IMG/VR virus record: IMGVR_UViG_3300021959_007005 | DNA: 64,000 nucleotides | DNA from: a virus | Lineage: Duplodnaviria; Caudoviricetes | Strand: one strand, 5' to 3' | In this document: piece by piece, positions 10,330-51,765 of the stretch | Position numbering within the stretch: the stretch's first letter is position 1 | Layout of the letters: each line of letters opens with the position of its first letter | Made by a program: the position numbers and the translations under genes | Notes under the pieces: generated by a model | Told to the model about the DNA's origin: nothing | Seen by the model: the letters and a program-made list of their open reading frames with translations, nothing else | Databases searched by the model: none

Positions 10330-10515
10330 ATGAAGATTAATGAAGTAATTCAACCATTAACTGAAGAACAGTTTGATGAAAAAGCAGGTAAAAAAGATGC
10401 TTGCTATCACAAAGTTAAATCACGTTACAAAGTATGGCCATCAGCATACGCATCAGGTGCATTAGTTAAGTGTCGTAAAGTTGGTGCAAAGAACTGGGGT
10501 AATTCAAAGAAATGA
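10330..10515 (+). CDS. Small basic protein conserved in T4-like marine phages
   Basis: KKDACYHKVKSRYKVWPSAYASGALVKCRKVGAKNWG motif; MKINEVI N-terminus. Confidence 0.75.
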   Translation: MKINEVIQPLTEEQFDEKAGKKDACYHKVKSRYKVWPSAYASGALVKCRKVGAKNWGNSKK

Positions 10516-29667: not shown

Positions 29668-30273
29668 ATGGCTAATATTACAGAACTAGGTCAAGTTAGT
29701 AACAATATTTCTTTATATGATAAGTGCGTTATTGGTCTGGACAGAGATGGTGTAATTAATGTGGACCGAGGAACTTACACATTTAGATCTGCTGACTTCC
29801 AGCCTATACCTGGTAGTATAGAAGCAATAGCTAGGTTACGCAATGCAGGACATAAAATTGTGATCATCACCAATCAAGGTGGTATTGAAAAAGGTTTGTT
29901 TACTCCAGCTGATGTAGATAAACTTCATGAGTATATGTTTGAACTTCTAGGGAAGGCTGGATGCAGTAGTATTGATGCACTATATTATAGTACTAGTAGT
30001 CGAAAAGACGATATTTACGCTAAACCAAATTTAGGCATGTTTCAGCGTTGCCAAAAAGAACATCCACATATAAAATTTAAAAGTGGATTATATGTTGGAG
30101 ATAAACTTTCTGACATGAAAGCCGCTGTTAAGATAGGAGCTCGACCAATTTTAGTTAGAACTGGTTATGGAGAAGCTACAGAAAAGGAACTTCATAAATT
30201 TACGTATCGTTCTATTGCAAAGAAAGTATCAGTGGTTGACTCACTAAGTGCATTAGCTGATGCTATTACGTAG
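29668..30273 (+). CDS. gmhB: HAD IIIA phosphatase (GmhB/HisB-N family)
   Basis: LDRDGVIN, IITNQGGI, KPNLGM, VGDKLSD. Confidence 0.85.
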   Translation: MANITELGQVSNNISLYDKCVIGLDRDGVINVDRGTYTFRSADFQPIPGSIEAIARLRNAGHKIVIITNQGGIEKGLFTPADVDKLHEYMFELLGKAGCSSIDALYYSTSSRKDDIYAKPNLGMFQRCQKEHPHIKFKSGLYVGDKLSDMKAAVKIGARPILVRTGYGEATEKELHKFTYRSIAKKVSVVDSLSALADAIT

Positions 30274-41833: not shown

Positions 41834-42083
41834 TATAGAGTATTTAGATATGAAACATGTTAGTGCGTACACTGATTTACAAAGTTGTTGGACTAAATAT
41901 TTTGCTTGGTTACCAAAGCGTAGCAATGGTAACGACAAGTTTATTTGGTTGACATCTTACTACGAATACGCTATAACTATGGATATGAATGGCGCAGTGC
42001 CAATTAAAGGCACCGCTTGGCGGATGATCTATACTCGGGAAGAATACATCACAAAGAAGTTGCAAGGAGATATGAATGAGTGA
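41778..42083 (+). CDS. Hypothetical protein (true start uncertain)
   Basis: ORF track; W..FAWLP...K.IWL..YY motif. Confidence 0.5.
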   Translation: MSRQVARRLRSWQSQDANSIEYLDMKHVSAYTDLQSCWTKYFAWLPKRSNGNDKFIWLTSYYEYAITMDMNGAVPIKGTAWRMIYTREEYITKKLQGDMNE

Positions 42084-43470
42084 AGATTACAGCGCAGACC
42101 TACAACAGTTATACTTGGAGTTCTTATTGGCTGACAAGGATCTGTTTGTGCGGTGTAATGCTATCTTAGAAAGCAGTTACTTTGACAGACAATTCAGAGA
42201 CACAGTAGATTTTATACAAAAACATGCAGATGAATACAACGATGTTCCCATGCTAGAGCAAGTTAAAGGCGTAGCTGGTGTTGAAATATCTGATGTGCGA
42301 GACAAACTAACCACAGAACATAAAAATTGGTTTATGGATAACTTTGAACAGTTCTGTAGACACAAAGCGTTGGAAGCAGCAATTCTAAAAAGTGCTGATA
42401 TGTTAGAGAACAAAGAGTATGGTACAGTAGAAGGCATCATCAAAGCGGCAACAGAGATTGGACTTGCTAAGAACTTTGGTACAAACTATTGGGATGATCC
42501 TGCAGGACGCATTCAAAGCATCAAAGACAACAGAGGACAGAATAGTAGTGGCTGGGAGACATTTGATAGAGTATTGTATGGTGGATTTAATCCAGGCGAA
42601 TTAAACATCTTTGCAGGTGGTAGTGGTAGTGGTAAGAGTTTGTTTATGCAGAACTTAGCACTAAACTGGGCGTTGCAAGGTAAAAACGTTGTGTACATCA
42701 GTTTAGAACTTAGTGAAGAACTGTGTGCTATGAGATTGGATGCTATGCTTACAGGCATGAGCACCAAAGACGTAATGAAGAATAGTAGCGATGTTGAGTT
42801 ACAAGTTAAGATGGCCAGTAAGAAAGCAGGTAAACTACAAGTAATACAAATGAAGAATGGTACTACTGTTAACGACATCAAAGCATACATGAGAGAATAT
42901 CAGATACAGCACAACTTGCATGTTGATGCACTACTGGTTGACTATTTGGATCTTATGATGCCAGTTACAGTTAAAGTTAATCCAAGCGATCAATTTATTA
43001 AAGATAAATTTGTTAGTGAAGAATTGCGCAATTTAGCAACTGAGCTGGGCATATTATTTGTAACTGCATCACAGTTAAACCGTGGTGCTGTTGATGAGAT
43101 TGAATTTGATCATAGCCATATTGCTGGAGGTATTAGTAAGATCAATACAGCAGATAACTTAATTGGTATCTTTAGTAGCAGGCCAATGCGAGAGCGTGGT
43201 AGAGTACAAATACAATTTATGAAAACACGTAGTAGTAGTGGAGTTGGTAGTAAACTAGATTTATCGTTTAATATTGATAGTTTACGGATACAGGATTTAG
43301 ATGAAAGTGAACGTGATGATCCAAATAGTGACACTACAAGCATATATCAAAAATTAAAAACAAAATCAACTATTGAAGCAGGGGAAAGCGTAACAGAAAA
43401 TAATATGACAGCTGATCCACAAATAAATCCAACTGACAGACTTAAAAGTTTATTAAGAAAGAGCGAGTAA
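42076..43470 (+). CDS. Replicative DnaB-like helicase (gp41-like)
   Basis: GGSGSGKS, ISLELSE, VDYLDL, TASQLNR, QFMKTR. Confidence 0.95.
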   Translation: MSEDYSADLQQLYLEFLLADKDLFVRCNAILESSYFDRQFRDTVDFIQKHADEYNDVPMLEQVKGVAGVEISDVRDKLTTEHKNWFMDNFEQFCRHKALEAAILKSADMLENKEYGTVEGIIKAATEIGLAKNFGTNYWDDPAGRIQSIKDNRGQNSSGWETFDRVLYGGFNPGELNIFAGGSGSGKSLFMQNLALNWALQGKNVVYISLELSEELCAMRLDAMLTGMSTKDVMKNSSDVELQVKMASKKAGKLQVIQMKNGTTVNDIKAYMREYQIQHNLHVDALLVDYLDLMMPVTVKVNPSDQFIKDKFVSEELRNLATELGILFVTASQLNRGAVDEIEFDHSHIAGGISKINTADNLIGIFSSRPMRERGRVQIQFMKTRSSSGVGSKLDLSFNIDSLRIQDLDESERDDPNSDTTSIYQKLKTKSTIEAGESVTENNMTADPQINPTDRLKSLLRKSE

Positions 43471-43873: not shown

Positions 43874-44043
43874 TGTTGAAGCAAAGGTGCAGTGTACCTT
43901 ATCTTTTATATATGTGGTCCTGAACTATTAACCTGTAGTAGGCCAATTTAAGCGTTGGTGAATTAATCTTATCGTTAACGGATCCTATGTTCTAATACCA
44001 GTTTCTGCAATTGCCATAAGTGCTAATCACCAATGCCTCAACT
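43872..44043 (-). ncRNA. Candidate late-expressed structured ncRNA, about 170 nt
   Basis: Minus-strand TAAATA at 44054-44049; terminal stem GTTGAGGCA/TGCTTCAAC; further stems TTGGTGA/TCACCAA, CTTAT/ATAAG, ATTGGCCT/AGGTTAAT and AAGGT/ACCTT; G-U pairs favour the minus strand; no ORF. Confidence 0.65.
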
Positions 44044-44081
44044 AAACTTATTTAACTTAACTTTAACTAAATAGTGTTACA

Positions 44082-44321
44082 ATGAAAAGAAAAACTAGAT
44101 CTTTACTGGAAGAAATTAATTCTATGTCACCCAAGCGTGACAAGAAGCAAATTGTTGAGAGTAATGCACAACAAGTAATTGGTACAGCAATACATCTTAT
44201 TGATTTAATAAATGAATCGTTCGACGAAGAAACAGCTAACGACCTTAACAAACGTTTAATTAACAGTATTAGGGCAAAAGACCCACGTAAGTTTCAACGA
44301 GGTATTGGTAAAGTATTATGA
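44082..44321 (+). CDS. Hypothetical late protein
   Basis: TAAATA at 44068, ATG 8 nt downstream. Confidence 0.65.
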   Translation: MKRKTRSLLEEINSMSPKRDKKQIVESNAQQVIGTAIHLIDLINESFDEETANDLNKRLINSIRAKDPRKFQRGIGKVL

Positions 44322-45151
44322 AAGTATCTGATATAATTGTTGGCGAAAAGTCACGTAAAATACGTAACAAGCGCCAAGTAAGAATTAATGGAAATAGTTT
44401 ACTGGCTAAAAGTGGTAAACATGCTATTAAACGTCTTAGTGAAAAAAATGCAATACCTGGTTCACTAGAAGTACCACATGAAATTATGCCAAGTTTGGTA
44501 AAAATAATTAACAGCGTTCTAGCAAAAACCAATAGCACAGGCATACCCATTGGAAGTGGCGCAACTCCTATACCCGGAGAGACCAGTGGTGATATAGACA
44601 TAATTGTTGATGTTAATGATCTTAAAAAGCACTTTAAGATGGAAGACCAAACTGATGGAGTTATTAGAAAAAAGCTAAAACAATTATTTGATTTAGCTGG
44701 ATTTCAAACAGTACAAACTGGTGTTATTGTTCATGTTGGACTTAACGTAAAAGGTAACTTATATCAAGCAGATGTTATGGTTGTACCTAATGCAGCCAAT
44801 GCGGCACAATTTCATACACACAATATTCCAAAAGGCAGTCCTTTCAAAGGTACTAACAAGCATCAGCTGCTGAGTATTATTGCTAGAGAAAAAGGTATGC
44901 TGTGGAGTAACTATGTTGGATTGTTTAAACGTTTACCAAACGGTAAAAAAGATCCCAACGGATTTATTACCAGTGATATTAATAAAATTGCACAATTATT
45001 ATTGGGTCCAAACGCAAAACCACTTGACATGGGGAGCGTAGAAGCTATAGTATCAGCATTAGGCGATGCAGGACAAGACCTGTTAGCAAACATTAGAGCA
45101 AATGATCCTAACTGGAAAGAAAAAACTAATGAGACTGCAATCAATCCTTAA
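44318..45151 (+). CDS. Pol-beta-superfamily nucleotidyltransferase
   Basis: IGSG..SGDIDIIVD (hGS..DxD motif) and a third Asp in YQADVMVV. Confidence 0.8.
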   Translation: MKVSDIIVGEKSRKIRNKRQVRINGNSLLAKSGKHAIKRLSEKNAIPGSLEVPHEIMPSLVKIINSVLAKTNSTGIPIGSGATPIPGETSGDIDIIVDVNDLKKHFKMEDQTDGVIRKKLKQLFDLAGFQTVQTGVIVHVGLNVKGNLYQADVMVVPNAANAAQFHTHNIPKGSPFKGTNKHQLLSIIAREKGMLWSNYVGLFKRLPNGKKDPNGFITSDINKIAQLLLGPNAKPLDMGSVEAIVSALGDAGQDLLANIRANDPNWKEKTNETAINP

Positions 45152-46211
45152 AGAATCTACCTCTAAAGGTAGAGAGTATAATCATTTAGAAGACCTTGTA
45201 TTTTTTGAAGGATCCAGTGGTGCATTTAAAGCAGCACAGTTACTAACACGTCTTGGACAGGATACTGGTGATGTTAGTATTAAATGGGATGGCAGTCCAA
45301 CTATATTTTGGGGACGTCAACCAAATGGTACATTTGTATTAGTAGGCAAAAATGGTTGGGGTAAGCGTATGAGTACCACACCAGAAGATTTATCAGATTA
45401 TATTTTAAATACTGGAAAAGGTGAAGATTGGCGTAAAGAATTTGCAGCAGGCATGAGTTCTCTTTTTGCTATTATGGAAGATAGTACTCCTGCTGATATG
45501 CGTGGATATGTGTATGGAGATCTATTGTTCCATCCAGGAAAGCCAGCAGTTAAAAATAAAGATAGTATAACATTTAAGCCTAATAATGTAACATATACTG
45601 TTGACAGTCAAAGCCCATTGGGACAAAAAATGTCTAAAAGTAGTGTTTGTGTAGTAGTACATACTTGGCATGATGCATTTGGTGACAAGGTTGGAACACC
45701 AATTAAAGCACCAAAAAAACTTAATAGTGAGTTAGTAACAGTATTAGGACAAACATATGTTACCCAAACTCCTGCTATAGATACTAGTGCAGTTGAAAAT
45801 ATTGTAAACACAACACGAAACAATAGCACTAAGATTGATAATTGGCTAGCACCAGAACAAGGATTGAGTAGGAAAGATCAAATACTTTATACCTATGTTA
45901 ATCAAATGACTAAGATGGGCAAACTAGACCAGATACGTAGTGGATTTTTTGATTGGCTTAAACAAAGTAAAGTAAGTCCAGGCCAACAAACTAAGTTAAT
46001 GTCTAATGACAGTCAAGGACTTGATATTATATTAGATTTAGTTGCACAAATACAGACAGCAAAAAATAATATAATTGATCAATTAGATGCTACTAGCACT
46101 GATGTTAAAGCAGTGACTGGTAATAAGCCAGGCGGCGAAGGATATGTAGTTACTAGGGATAAAATTAAGCTAGTACCTAGAGATAGATGGACACCAGTTC
46201 AAGTTGGATAA
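45129..46211 (+). CDS. RNA-ligase/covalent nucleotidyltransferase-like protein (probably DUF6267-type)
   Basis: Start re-called to ATG 45129; NHLED; motif I KWDG, YVYGDLL, motif IV GEGYVV, motif V KLV. Confidence 0.7.
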   Translation: MRLQSILKESTSKGREYNHLEDLVFFEGSSGAFKAAQLLTRLGQDTGDVSIKWDGSPTIFWGRQPNGTFVLVGKNGWGKRMSTTPEDLSDYILNTGKGEDWRKEFAAGMSSLFAIMEDSTPADMRGYVYGDLLFHPGKPAVKNKDSITFKPNNVTYTVDSQSPLGQKMSKSSVCVVVHTWHDAFGDKVGTPIKAPKKLNSELVTVLGQTYVTQTPAIDTSAVENIVNTTRNNSTKIDNWLAPEQGLSRKDQILYTYVNQMTKMGKLDQIRSGFFDWLKQSKVSPGQQTKLMSNDSQGLDIILDLVAQIQTAKNNIIDQLDATSTDVKAVTGNKPGGEGYVVTRDKIKLVPRDRWTPVQVG

Positions 46212-46219
46212 ATATTATT

Positions 46220-47005
46220 ATGGAAAAATATACAGCAAAACAATGGTCTGAAATTCAAGGTGGACATACTATGTCCAATAATCAAGAAACTAAATTTGGA
46301 TTTATATCAAACCTTAATGAAAGTAGAATGTATCGTACTAAGCAAAGCGTAGTTGGTACTAATGCCAGAGATATGGCAGATTTTGCTTTTATGAATATGT
46401 TAGCTGTTTATATTCTAAGTAAAGAATACGATTTTGCTCCAGCTATGCAAGGATATGCTAAACGTACTATGATGTTTGGTAATTTTTCTGCATATAGACA
46501 GACTGGTACAGATCTATATATTGCTCTTAATAGCCTACAAAATAATAGTAGCGGTACTAGCGATAAAGATAAAATACAAAATAATAAAATTAGTTTGCCT
46601 GATCAAAAAATTAAAGTATTTTTAAGACAAATAATGACTGGCAGACCAGTGTTGAACCCATCAGCATTTTTTCTTGCATTAGAACGAGGACTTGATATAC
46701 AAAGTTCTAACTATAGAAGTGTTAGAAGATTAGCACAAGACTGGGACAGATTAAACGGTATGCAAAAAAGTTTAGTAGTTACTCGAATGTTACAGTTTTT
46801 TAGAGCTAAAGCATTGCGCAGTGAGCTATACACATATATAAGAGATATGTCAAGAACACAGGGCTTAGAAATTAAAGGTGCAGGTAATGCAGAAGACCCC
46901 AAAGCAAGAGGAGTTGACACACTTAAAAGTGTAGCAGCAAATGTTGCTGTGGCGGCTGGGGGGTTTGCTGCTGGTAGAGCATTTGGTAGACGTATAGCCA
47001 AATAA
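46220..47005 (+). CDS. Hypothetical late protein
   Basis: TAAATA at 46209, ATG 46220. Confidence 0.65.
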   Translation: MEKYTAKQWSEIQGGHTMSNNQETKFGFISNLNESRMYRTKQSVVGTNARDMADFAFMNMLAVYILSKEYDFAPAMQGYAKRTMMFGNFSAYRQTGTDLYIALNSLQNNSSGTSDKDKIQNNKISLPDQKIKVFLRQIMTGRPVLNPSAFFLALERGLDIQSSNYRSVRRLAQDWDRLNGMQKSLVVTRMLQFFRAKALRSELYTYIRDMSRTQGLEIKGAGNAEDPKARGVDTLKSVAANVAVAAGGFAAGRAFGRRIAK

Positions 47006-47409
47006 TGAATACCTTTATTGCGTACACGCTGGTTGATATTACCAACAGTGGAATTACTAGACCGTTTAATAATATTTTAGCATATAATCAACAACAAAAT
47101 TTAAACACCTTAATACAGACAATTGGGATTAGGAGTCAGCCATTATCGCCAATAGTTGTAGTTGAATCTACACAAGATCTAGTTAAATATCAGTTCGGAA
47201 AGCAGTATAAAGGACTACATACTGTATGGAAAATAAAATTTAGTATAGAACATAGTGACGTTTTTAGTTATAAGGGTAATAGATTACATCATTTATATAA
47301 TGATTCTGATGGTATTGCTATTATATCTAATTTATCAGAAACAGCAAATATTAATACTGGATGTTTTGAAACTACTGACCAGTATAAAATTAACCTGTAC
47401 TTTAAATAG
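47005..47409 (+). CDS. Hypothetical protein
   Basis: ORF track; TAATG coupling. Confidence 0.6.
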   Translation: MNTFIAYTLVDITNSGITRPFNNILAYNQQQNLNTLIQTIGIRSQPLSPIVVVESTQDLVKYQFGKQYKGLHTVWKIKFSIEHSDVFSYKGNRLHHLYNDSDGIAIISNLSETANINTGCFETTDQYKINLYFK

Positions 47410-51090: not shown

Positions 51091-51765
51091 ATGTTAAAAA
51101 TCACATCACCTTATCAATATCAGGAATTAAAGCGTAAAAGTGTAGAAGGTAAACGCCTTTATGCAAACCCGTGGGGAGATCCTGTACCTAGTGTTACTAC
51201 CATTCTAGATAAAACAAAGCCACGTGAAAAACGTGAGGCGCTTAATAACTGGAAAAAACGGGTAGGCGAAAAGAAAGCACAGGAAATAACAACTGAAGCC
51301 GCGAATGTAGGCACAATCATGCATAACATGTTAGAGTCGTGGAGCCTTAATGAGGAATACACGGGCACTAATATGCTACAAGCCAAGATGATGGCAGACA
51401 CTGTTATTAAAAATGTAGAAGATGATATTGACGAAGTTTGGGGAAGTGAAGTAAACTTGTGTTATCCAGGACTATATGCAGGTACTACAGATTTAGTAGG
51501 TATATATAAAGGCCGTCCTACAATTATGGATTTCAAACAAACCAATCGTCCAAAGAAACGTGAATGGATTGATGATTATTTCATGCAAGCTGCCGCTTAT
51601 GGAATGGCACATAACGAATTATATGAAACTAAAATTGAAAATGCTGCTATCTTTATGTGTAGCAGAGATTGTGATTGGCAATTATGGGAAGTAGGGCCAG
51701 AAGAATTTAAACAATGGACAGAAAAATGGGCTTTACGGGTTGCAGAGTTTTATAATTTGTCATAA
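51091..51765 (+). CDS. PD-(D/E)xK exonuclease
   Basis: PSVTTIL, GTIMH, YAGTTDLVG, IMDFKQT, Q.AAY; early promoter at 51056. Confidence 0.85.
   Translation: MLKITSPYQYQELKRKSVEGKRLYANPWGDPVPSVTTILDKTKPREKREALNNWKKRVGEKKAQEITTEAANVGTIMHNMLESWSLNEEYTGTNMLQAKMMADTVIKNVEDDIDEVWGSEVNLCYPGLYAGTTDLVGIYKGRPTIMDFKQTNRPKKREWIDDYFMQAAAYGMAHNELYETKIENAAIFMCSRDCDWQLWEVGPEEFKQWTEKWALRVAEFYNLS

Follow-up and report, generated by a model that had tools for sequence, protein, structure and literature searches.

Two overlapping plus-strand genes in IMG/VR record IMGVR_UViG_3300021959_007005, a 64-kb stretch of viral DNA (the window), encode a nucleotidyltransferase (NTase) resembling a minimal family X DNA polymerase (PolX) and a ligase-like protein of Pfam family DUF6267. 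Our preferred reading, held tentatively at slightly less than even confidence, is that the two enzymes form a fill-and-seal module within a late block of head-cargo genes, that they are probably loaded into the capsid, and that DNA is their likelier substrate. The observations on which this reading is built are the folds and motifs of both proteins, the strict linkage of their genes, their fusion into single polypeptides, conserved N-terminal leaders, and the record of a homologue of the polymerase-like enzyme in virions of the jumbo myophage PA5oct. These features lie far beyond chance, given homologues in 88 metagenomic NTase clusters and more than 1400 DUF6267 clusters, with NTase relatives encoded on 465 viral contigs of IMG/VR.

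In the proposed pathway, the NTase would fill a gap, or extend a 3′ end, by one or a few nucleotides, and the DUF6267 enzyme, adenylylated on Lys52 in the manner of ATP-dependent ligases, would seal the resulting nick. The leaders would direct both enzymes into the prohead and be trimmed by the prohead protease, and the delivered pair would then repair the incoming DNA at nicks, gaps or ends, or make good what host nucleases had damaged. The features of the pair are as follows.

44318–45151, plus strand: open reading frame of the 277-residue NTase, its start overlapped by the ATGA that ends the 44082–44321 open reading frame.
44318–44440, plus strand: basic N-terminal leader of the NTase, residues 1–41, ending L-S-E.
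44441–45151, plus strand: predicted minimal PolX-like nucleotidyltransferase domain, comprising palm, thumb and C-terminal helices.
45129–46211, plus strand: 360-residue DUF6267 protein, putatively assigned to the ligase superfamily; its 9-residue leader closes with L-K-E, and helices inserted at residues ~222–321 split the nucleotidyltransferase core.

Folds, motifs and linkage of the two enzymes

The NTase, whose homologues amount to 577 representatives at 50% identity, matches no Pfam or PHROG family. The palm signature of Pol beta (hG[GS], then DxD and a third Asp) is present, with residues G79-S80, D92-I-D94 and D152 invariant or nearly so in 38 homologues. An AlphaFold model derived from a 38-sequence alignment has a predicted local distance difference test score (pLDDT) of 88.9 and is confident from residue ~42 onwards, residues 1–41 forming a basic leader of low confidence (pLDDT 45–67). 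A Foldseek search of the PDB with this model returned 354 matches at E ≤ 0.001, the best 50 of which are all family X DNA polymerases, aligned over ~205 columns with E-values of ~5e-9. Among Swiss-Prot models, Pol beta and Pol lambda are matched at E 6.5e-8 and CCA-adding enzymes only at 2e-4, and a shape search of the ESM Atlas also reaches PolX clusters. The alignment with PolX enzymes spans 161–191 residues of the NTase and includes the thumb (nascent base-pair binding) subdomain, present directly after the palm, whereas matches of toxin or CD-NTase type cover only ~95 palm residues.

Neither the 8-kDa dRP-lyase domain nor the helix-hairpin-helix fingers domain was found in the NTase, in which only the ~41-residue, low-confidence basic leader precedes the palm; Pol X of African swine fever virus (ASFV) likewise lacks both domains. 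As the fold searches agree, the 277-residue protein is, on its predicted structure, a minimal family X DNA-polymerase-like enzyme of palm and thumb. It is not a member of the family by sequence criteria, and falls outside the Pfam families DNA_pol_B_palm and DNA_pol_B_thumb. An earlier reading of this DNA, made from the sequence alone (the sequence-only reading), had described a Pol-beta nucleotidyltransferase and had named CCA-adding enzymes, tRNA-modifying toxins and cyclic-nucleotide synthases among its possible kin; catalytic residues and structure searches uphold the Pol-beta fold, whilst the CCA-adding-like, toxin-like and CD-NTase-like identities were rejected, their matches being restricted to the palm and scoring lower. 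In the nearest relative compared (G001, IMGVR_UViG_3300000115_000013; L001 1480–2205), which is 95–97% identical, the NTase is matched in two frames (residues 1–235 and 233–277), the result of a frameshift or assembly error near the 3′ end.

The second enzyme belongs to DUF6267 (PF19782, E 4.4e-29), a family of more than 1400 clusters at 90% identity found in cyanomyophages, pelagiphages, Methylophilales phages and jumbo phages, and of which no mention was found in the literature searched. Its reading frame is open from 45102, and the start supported by homologues is the Met codon at 45129 (MRLQSILKES), 23 nt within the preceding gene, from which residues are numbered here. The motifs K52-W-D-G, G130-D131-L-L, G335-G-E-G-Y and K345-I-K347-L-V-P-R are invariant in 37 homologues and occur in the same succession as motifs I, III, IV and V of ligases, with Asp in place of Glu in motif III and ~200 residues, including the helical insertion, between motifs III and IV. 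Motif I (I-K52-W-D-G) is also kept in the DUF6267 homologue of cyanophage P-HM2. The covalent-nucleotidyltransferase motifs on which the sequence-only reading based a ligase-like enzyme are thereby confirmed, and the genes, motifs and promoter-like box that it described are all present in the sequence, the motifs being invariant or nearly so across homologues.

The DUF6267 model (pLDDT 86.3) has a beta-rich core interrupted by a helical insertion of ~100 residues. No OB domain is present in this model, which ends ~10 residues past motif V and whose sole extra domain is helical. The best Foldseek match in the PDB is DNA ligase IV (E 0.038), and searches of AlphaFold DB and BFVD give, past the family itself, RNA ligases at E 2.6e-3 to 2.7e-3; the nearest structures outside the family are the RNA ligases Trl1, Rnl3, REL1 and NgrRnl, together with phage ‘RNA ligase’ entries in BFVD. 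Matches of the predicted structure outside its family are thus weak but one-sided. Judged from the ends of the alignments, K347 probably lies four residues from the end, like the motif V lysine of LigIV and Lig1, and two residues from the end, like K238 of Palaeococcus Rnl3.

DUF6267 is not a member of PF01068, PF09414, PF09511 or PF01331. Alignment with hhalign of its profile, which is shallow (Neff ~2.1–2.4), to four phage PF09414 RNA ligases and to Phosso 446 and PA5oct gp256 gave no signal, and a full-library VIA search with the whole model returned helical bundles and is uninformative for the core. Since the motifs stand in ligase order and the structural neighbours outside the family are ligases, DUF6267 is read as a divergent ligase-type covalent nucleotidyltransferase. 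DNA and RNA ligase structures score within one Z unit of each other, and the fold therefore does not decide the substrate. The comparison of predicted structures on which the earlier assignments were to stand or fall thus yields PolX matches for the NTase and weak, ligase-type neighbours for DUF6267. Additionally, a Cys-rich insert (WVCGKC...PC.C), perhaps a small metal-binding module, follows the DUF6267 leader and precedes the conserved domain in P0096, P0175 and two IMG/VR loci.

The NTase and DUF6267 genes are strongly linked. In the best 80 of the 465 contigs encoding the NTase, the order helicase, (133-residue gene), 79-residue gene, NTase, DUF6267, 245-residue gene and 134-residue gene is kept without exception (80 of 80), although two loci have a 139-residue gene inserted between the NTase and DUF6267 genes. 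Synteny, which the sequence-only reading had put forward as a check, holds for the enzyme pair in these loci; the large upstream spacer is not kept in the more distant L007 and L015. The inserted gene (L009 5774–6193; also L102 and L103) starts MRFHHLIENQ and has a faint match (E 0.12) to ART-PolyVal, an ADP-ribosyltransferase of polyvalent injected proteins.

Furthermore, 42 of the 149 NTase-family representatives newly listed by an all-against-all profile search are at least 480 residues long, and in seven of ten long representatives scanned DUF6267 forms part of the same polypeptide, C-terminal to the NTase in P0226, P0227, P0248 and P0275 and N-terminal to it in P0242 and P0252, the seventh being P0269. 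A fill-and-seal pathway would be expected to show such repeated fusion and pairing of polymerase-like and ligase-type enzymes. Related architectures were also observed in P0269, P0318 and P0348 (metagenomic, ~812–829 residues), which hold NTase and DUF6267-type motifs. P0269 has an N-terminal HxGH (NMNAT-like) nucleotidyltransferase before its PolX-like domain and DUF6267, with hydrophobic-x-E sites at the junctions, and cyanophages have cytidylyltransferase-like genes adjoining or fused to DUF6267; no NMNAT-like HxGH gene was found in the 64-kb window, from which the three-enzyme form is therefore absent.

At the same locus, Sinorhizobium phage Phosso has gene 446 (KLDG ... EGVV) and, after it, gene 447, which is remotely homologous to the NTase (hhalign E 2.2e-5); gene 445 is unrelated to the NTase. 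In Pseudomonas phage PA5oct, the NTase homologue is gp253 (hhalign 93.6%, E 2.2e-7), and three genes upstream of it stands gp256 (KIDG ... EGYV), which is 32% identical to Phosso 446 over its N-terminal part. In BFVD, the DUF6267 model also matches a 446-residue PA5oct protein, probably gp256, in structure (E 1.2e-3). The genes beside DUF6267 in P-HM2 show no similarity to the NTase profile.

N-terminal leaders and the virion-protein block

Both enzymes and the next protein of the block, of 245 residues, begin with short leaders that end in hydrophobic-x-Glu, the signature of T4-type prohead cargo, and on these grounds the pair is probably packaged in the capsid and delivered with the genome. 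Counted over distinct N-termini, the (L/I/V)-x-E leader end is conserved in 30 of 32 DUF6267 proteins, ~38 of 39 NTases and 35 of 35 homologues of the 245-residue protein. NTase leaders are basic, ~30–45 residues long, and place hydrophobic-x-E directly before GGN, with short homologues that have no leader beginning exactly at M-GGNVF. The DUF6267 N-termini of this clade read M-R/K-x-x-x-F/I/L-L-T/A/S-E-A, L7 being nearly invariant and E9 invariant, though the pLDDT of this stretch is 32, and the leaders of the 245-residue protein are variable and end L/I/V/M-x-E-S/A. The leader is retained despite an insertion after it, either of 95 residues (P0094) or of the Cys-rich segment, and the DUF6267 homologue P0152 bears a leader of NTase type. 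The domain junctions of fusion proteins likewise carry hydrophobic-x-E (ISE/GGK, INE/GGN and ITE/GGK). The packaging-signal-like N-termini noticed in the sequence-only reading thus prove to be leaders conserved in three families.

The capsid-targeting leaders of T4 are 10–20 residues long and are removed by gp21, with Alt cut at ITE-6 and LTE-619 (PMC5694885). Complete genomes of four related phages (Phosso, P-HM2, Vibrio phage 2.275.O and fHe-Yen9-04) encode a Peptidase_S77 prohead protease. PA5oct is reported to have 93 virion-linked products (PMC7318152), and its distant NTase homologue gp253 is recorded as ‘structural protein, ESI-MS/MS’. For the phage described here, leader cleavage, packaging and late timing are predictions from these parallels. 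Leader-like starts were also observed in other small open reading frames, at 10330, 48178, 50115 and 48764 (MKINEVI, MKIFEVIAED, MKIFEVIGG and MQMREII). The pattern occurs in 4 of the 84 open reading frames of the window, or 5 with the DUF6267 start at 45129, and is concentrated in the 44–51 kb block, which suggests that the leader-bearing small open reading frames form a set of head-cargo proteins.

The window belongs to the AT-rich genome (~35% GC) of a large, uncultured marine phage, and holds a tRNA array alongside genes for replication and for structural proteins. Its helicase is nearest to those of the jumbo myophages PA5oct and Phosso (~47–49% identity), and the source phage is read as a marine jumbo myophage of the Rak2/PA5oct/Phosso supergroup. 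The features that surround the enzyme pair are listed below.

42076–43470: DnaB-like helicase gene, followed by a 133-residue gene, a 209-nt spacer and a tightly packed row of plus-strand genes.
44066–44073, plus strand: ACTAAATA box, a T4-type late promoter core (ATAAATA) with one mismatch, 14 nt upstream of the first ATG.
44082–44321, plus strand: 79-residue small protein, first gene of the block, matching phrog_11854 ‘virion structural protein’ (E 4.9e-20).
46208–46214, plus strand: ATAAATA late-promoter-like box found by motif scan inside the 3′ terminus of the DUF6267 coding sequence; the probable start of the 245-residue gene lies 54 nt further on.
46268–47005, plus strand: 245-residue protein of no recognised family, a conserved downstream partner whose leader ends L-N-E/S.
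47005–47409, plus strand: 134-residue protein, next conserved member of the block, with homologues Phosso 450 and PA5oct gp250.
51091–51765: PD-(D/E)xK/Cas4-like exonuclease closing the virion-protein block (phrog_298, E 4.7e-55), as it does in fHe-Yen9-04 (g293) and Vibrio phage 2.275.O.

Homologues of the 79-residue protein come after the helicase gene in Phosso, Vibrio phage 2.275.O, fHe-Yen9-04 (g285) and PA5oct (gp259), the latter two being annotated as virion structural proteins. The genes that come after this homologue in Vibrio phage 2.275.O and fHe-Yen9-04 are not homologues of the enzyme pair. The reading frame of the 245-residue protein is open from 46187, with the start at 46268 indicated by homologues, which are found in Phosso (gene 448, E 3e-26) and at loci L007, L009 and L015, and it has no Pfam or PHROG match. 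The 134-residue protein matches fHe-Yen9-04 g287 weakly, and its homologue PA5oct gp250 is annotated ‘structural protein, ESI-MS/MS’. From helicase to exonuclease, the block matches one annotated mostly as virion proteins in fHe-Yen9-04 and PA5oct, and its other genes match virion-protein PHROGs. Searches of 50,697 phage records with the operon (blastn) and with the NTase (tblastn) gave no match.

The late-type promoter box that the sequence-only reading placed upstream of the operon was found as described, with TAAATA at 44068, 14 nt before the ATG of the 79-residue gene. The 8-mer ACTAAATA is kept exactly in locus L009 despite differing flanks and proteins only 53–66% identical, and may act as a late promoter. 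A motif scan of the window found ATAAATA 13 times on the plus strand against 2 on the minus strand, mostly 10–30 nt upstream of gene starts, and other genes of the window carry TTGACA-N17-TATAAT-like promoters. Contigs from three metatranscriptome studies cover the operon at a contig depth several-fold above that of the upstream helicase gene, such contigs showing neither strand, ends nor level. At 46206–46207, at the ATAAATA box before the 245-residue gene, contigs from two RNA-library studies stop or continue into unlike sequence, which suggests a junction between co-occurring variant genomes that differ upstream of that point.

The 209-nt spacer upstream of the operon (43874–44081) has long blocks identical to those of a relative with 53–66% protein identity and is more conserved than coding DNA, which fits a functional RNA or a regulatory region; folded as a minus-strand RNA, it gives a z of −1.9 only, which is not decisive. 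That the enzyme pair matures an adjacent non-coding RNA, as the sequence-only reading had suggested, finds no support: relatives L007 and L015 keep the NTase with a spacer of only 62–77 nt instead of 209 nt.

Substrate, packaging and competing explanations

DNA is considered more likely than RNA as the substrate on account of the PolX-type thumb, viral precedents for PolX with ligase, and the occurrence of DUF6267 in P-HM2, in which three conventional ligase Pfam families gave no match. ASFV Pol X and its ligase constitute a viral base-excision-repair pattern. A second precedent is PgVPolX, in which a PolX polymerase and a ligase are fused (PMC5537341). In P-HM2, DUF6267 stands in the replication cluster, between gp41/MazG and nucleotide-metabolism genes, and no ligase of PF01068, PF01653 or PF09414 was found in this phage, which argues for a DNA role of DUF6267 there and fits the reported absence of ligase gp30, along with other genes, from marine T4-like cyanophages (PMC2993671). 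In the 64-kb window, tblastn found neither an NAD+ ligase nor a PF09414 ligase.

Several findings weigh against a capsid-loaded polymerase and ligase. The Pfam palm match of the NTase is sub-threshold (E 0.054–0.14) and confined to 3 of 38 members, a Pfam scan of 37 DUF6267 members at E-values up to 10 returned only PF19782 (37/37) and no ligase family, and phmmer and profile searches of PDB sequences gave chance matches only for either protein. Distant NTase homologues at L007, L013 and L015 have no adjacent DUF6267, which L011 does have. As regards packaging, no prohead protease was found in the 64-kb window by tblastn, and cyanophage DUF6267 proteins have no leader. As regards timing, the ACTAAATA box is one base off the local ATAAATA consensus, and cover of the operon by RNA-library contigs is no proof of transcription or of when it occurs.

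An RNA repair or tailing pair is an unlikely but substantial alternative, in which the ligase-like enzyme would reseal host or phage RNA, such as tRNA cut by an anticodon nuclease, after the Pol-beta-fold enzyme had restored nucleotides, much as TUTase and RNA ligase act in turn in trypanosome RNA editing. The missing OB domain of DUF6267 and its nearest non-family structures accord with this explanation, likeness to RNA ligases being at least equal to that to DNA ligases, as does the weak Pfam RNA_ligase match of Phosso 446 at motif I (E 0.085). The window additionally holds a six-tRNA array with a PNK3P-type HAD phosphatase gene beside it, a HAD_PNKP gene lies near one distant locus and a Metallophos gene at another, and a conserved structured spacer adjoins the operon. 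However, the likeness of the NTase to DNA polymerases X takes in palm and thumb, against the palm only for RNA-specific NTases, the operon has no polynucleotide kinase, the ligase fold is neutral between the two substrates, and the NTase is kept in relatives that have no large spacer, whilst P-HM2 carries DUF6267 with no match to three conventional ligase Pfam families.

The HAD phosphatase gene (29668–30273; 201 residues), whose match to Pfam PNK3P (polynucleotide kinase 3′-phosphatase) exceeds the cut-off (E 1.5e-10), is found ~800 nt beyond the six-tRNA array and 14 kb from the operon. Its product might heal nucleic-acid ends or, alternatively, dephosphorylate sugar phosphates. The end-healing and sealing pair, possibly packaged and injected, that was proposed from the sequence alone remains a fair outline, save that the operon holds no 5′-kinase or other end-healing partner. 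Its orientation towards RNA has to be revised, since the specifically PolX-like character of the NTase shifts the likeliest substrate from RNA to DNA, leaving RNA repair with the low probability given above.

Similarly improbable is fill-and-seal on DNA by an unpackaged pair, acting in the cytoplasm in late repair of concatemers before packaging or in Okazaki maturation, with the leaders having another role or none. T4 requires ligase for DNA maturation, and the operon stands directly after replication genes (primase, helicase); moreover, the P-HM2 DUF6267, placed amongst replication and nucleotide-metabolism genes, is not marked as a virion protein, and neither is the ligase-like PA5oct gp256, which was not detected in virions and so counts against packaging. 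Such a pair would nevertheless leave the hydrophobic-x-E sites, conserved in three families and at fusion junctions, without their expected role, and sits poorly with a leader that is kept ahead of a 95-residue insertion (P0094), with the NTase homologue recorded in PA5oct virions, and with surrounding genes that are homologues of virion proteins.

Least probable by far is an injected effector pair directed at host targets or nucleotide signals, for example a MenT-like tRNA-modifying toxin or a CD-NTase-like synthase or decoy with a ligase-like protein adenylylating a host molecule, for although the gene inserted between the pair in a relative has the faint ART-PolyVal match and injected enzymatic cargo such as T4 Alt is known (PMC5694885), toxin and CD-NTase matches stop at ~95 palm residues against the 161–191 residues, thumb included, of PolX, repeated fusion or pairing with a ligase-type enzyme is the prediction of fill-and-seal, and no CD-NTase C-terminal domain or effector gene is present, so that the suggested interference with nucleotide-signal defences finds no support.

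Relation to known systems and wider meaning

The predicted fill-and-seal pair resembles ASFV Pol X (O174L) and the ASFV DNA ligase in its minimal PolX of palm and thumb. It differs in having no sequence-level similarity to ASFV Pol X, in the N-terminal leader and extra C-terminal helices of the phage enzyme, in a ligase-like partner from a different, OB-less family with a helical insertion, and in its bacterial host, with no AP endonuclease identified in the phage operon. It has in common with PgVPolX the union of PolX core and ligase as a single functional unit, and fusion of the two likewise occurs among relatives of the phage pair. The PgV ligase domain, in contrast, is NAD+-dependent-ligase-like and biochemically proven, whereas the phage partner is DUF6267, is fused in both orders, and has a predicted function.

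DUF6267 shares with the ATP-dependent RNA ligases (T4 Rnl1, fungal Trl1, Naegleria Rnl5 and trypanosome REL1) the KxDG, EGYV and KxK motifs, the absence of an OB domain and a helical accessory domain, but in DUF6267 this domain interrupts the core between motifs IIIa and IV instead of following it, Asp replaces Glu in motif III, and there is no membership of their Pfam families. In contrast to T4 Pnkp-Rnl1, the phage operon has no kinase-phosphatase partner, a PolX-like enzyme standing in its place. The likeness to the T4 cargo proteins IPI-III and Alt lies in short leaders ending (L/I)-x-E, here LTE/LKE at residue 9 of DUF6267, LxE before GGN in the NTase and LNE before S in the 245-residue protein, and in the T4-type prohead protease of related phages. 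The phage cargo, whose packaging is predicted, would nevertheless consist of nucleic-acid repair enzymes and not of anti-restriction or ADP-ribosylating proteins. The module is set apart from these systems by a mini-PolX that is an orphan at the sequence level, an OB-less ligase type with an inserted helical domain, its occurrence in bacteriophages, and its head-cargo leaders.

A review of phage DNA polymerases from 2022 gives ASFV as the sole viral example of family X (PMC8775771), and a phage PolX would thus extend the family. As a compact polymerase–ligase pair, the two enzymes may also find use as reagents. DUF6267, a widespread and unexplained family of marine phages, gains a testable function as a ligase type coupled to a PolX-like polymerase, and might be the ligase apparently missing from marine T4-like cyanophages. 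Taken in its full extent, the proposal would have marine jumbo phages load a mini-PolX and a new OB-less ligase into the capsid by T4-style leaders and inject both with the genome, to mend incoming DNA or defence-cut host RNA before phage expression, with DUF6267 as the missing ligase of marine T4-like cyanophages; this combination of claims we hold to be possible but doubtful. Should the pair be true head cargo, nucleic-acid repair enzymes would join the proteins that phages inject as a new class, distinct from inhibitors and modifiers, and this would bear on how phage genomes survive entry and withstand host nucleases.

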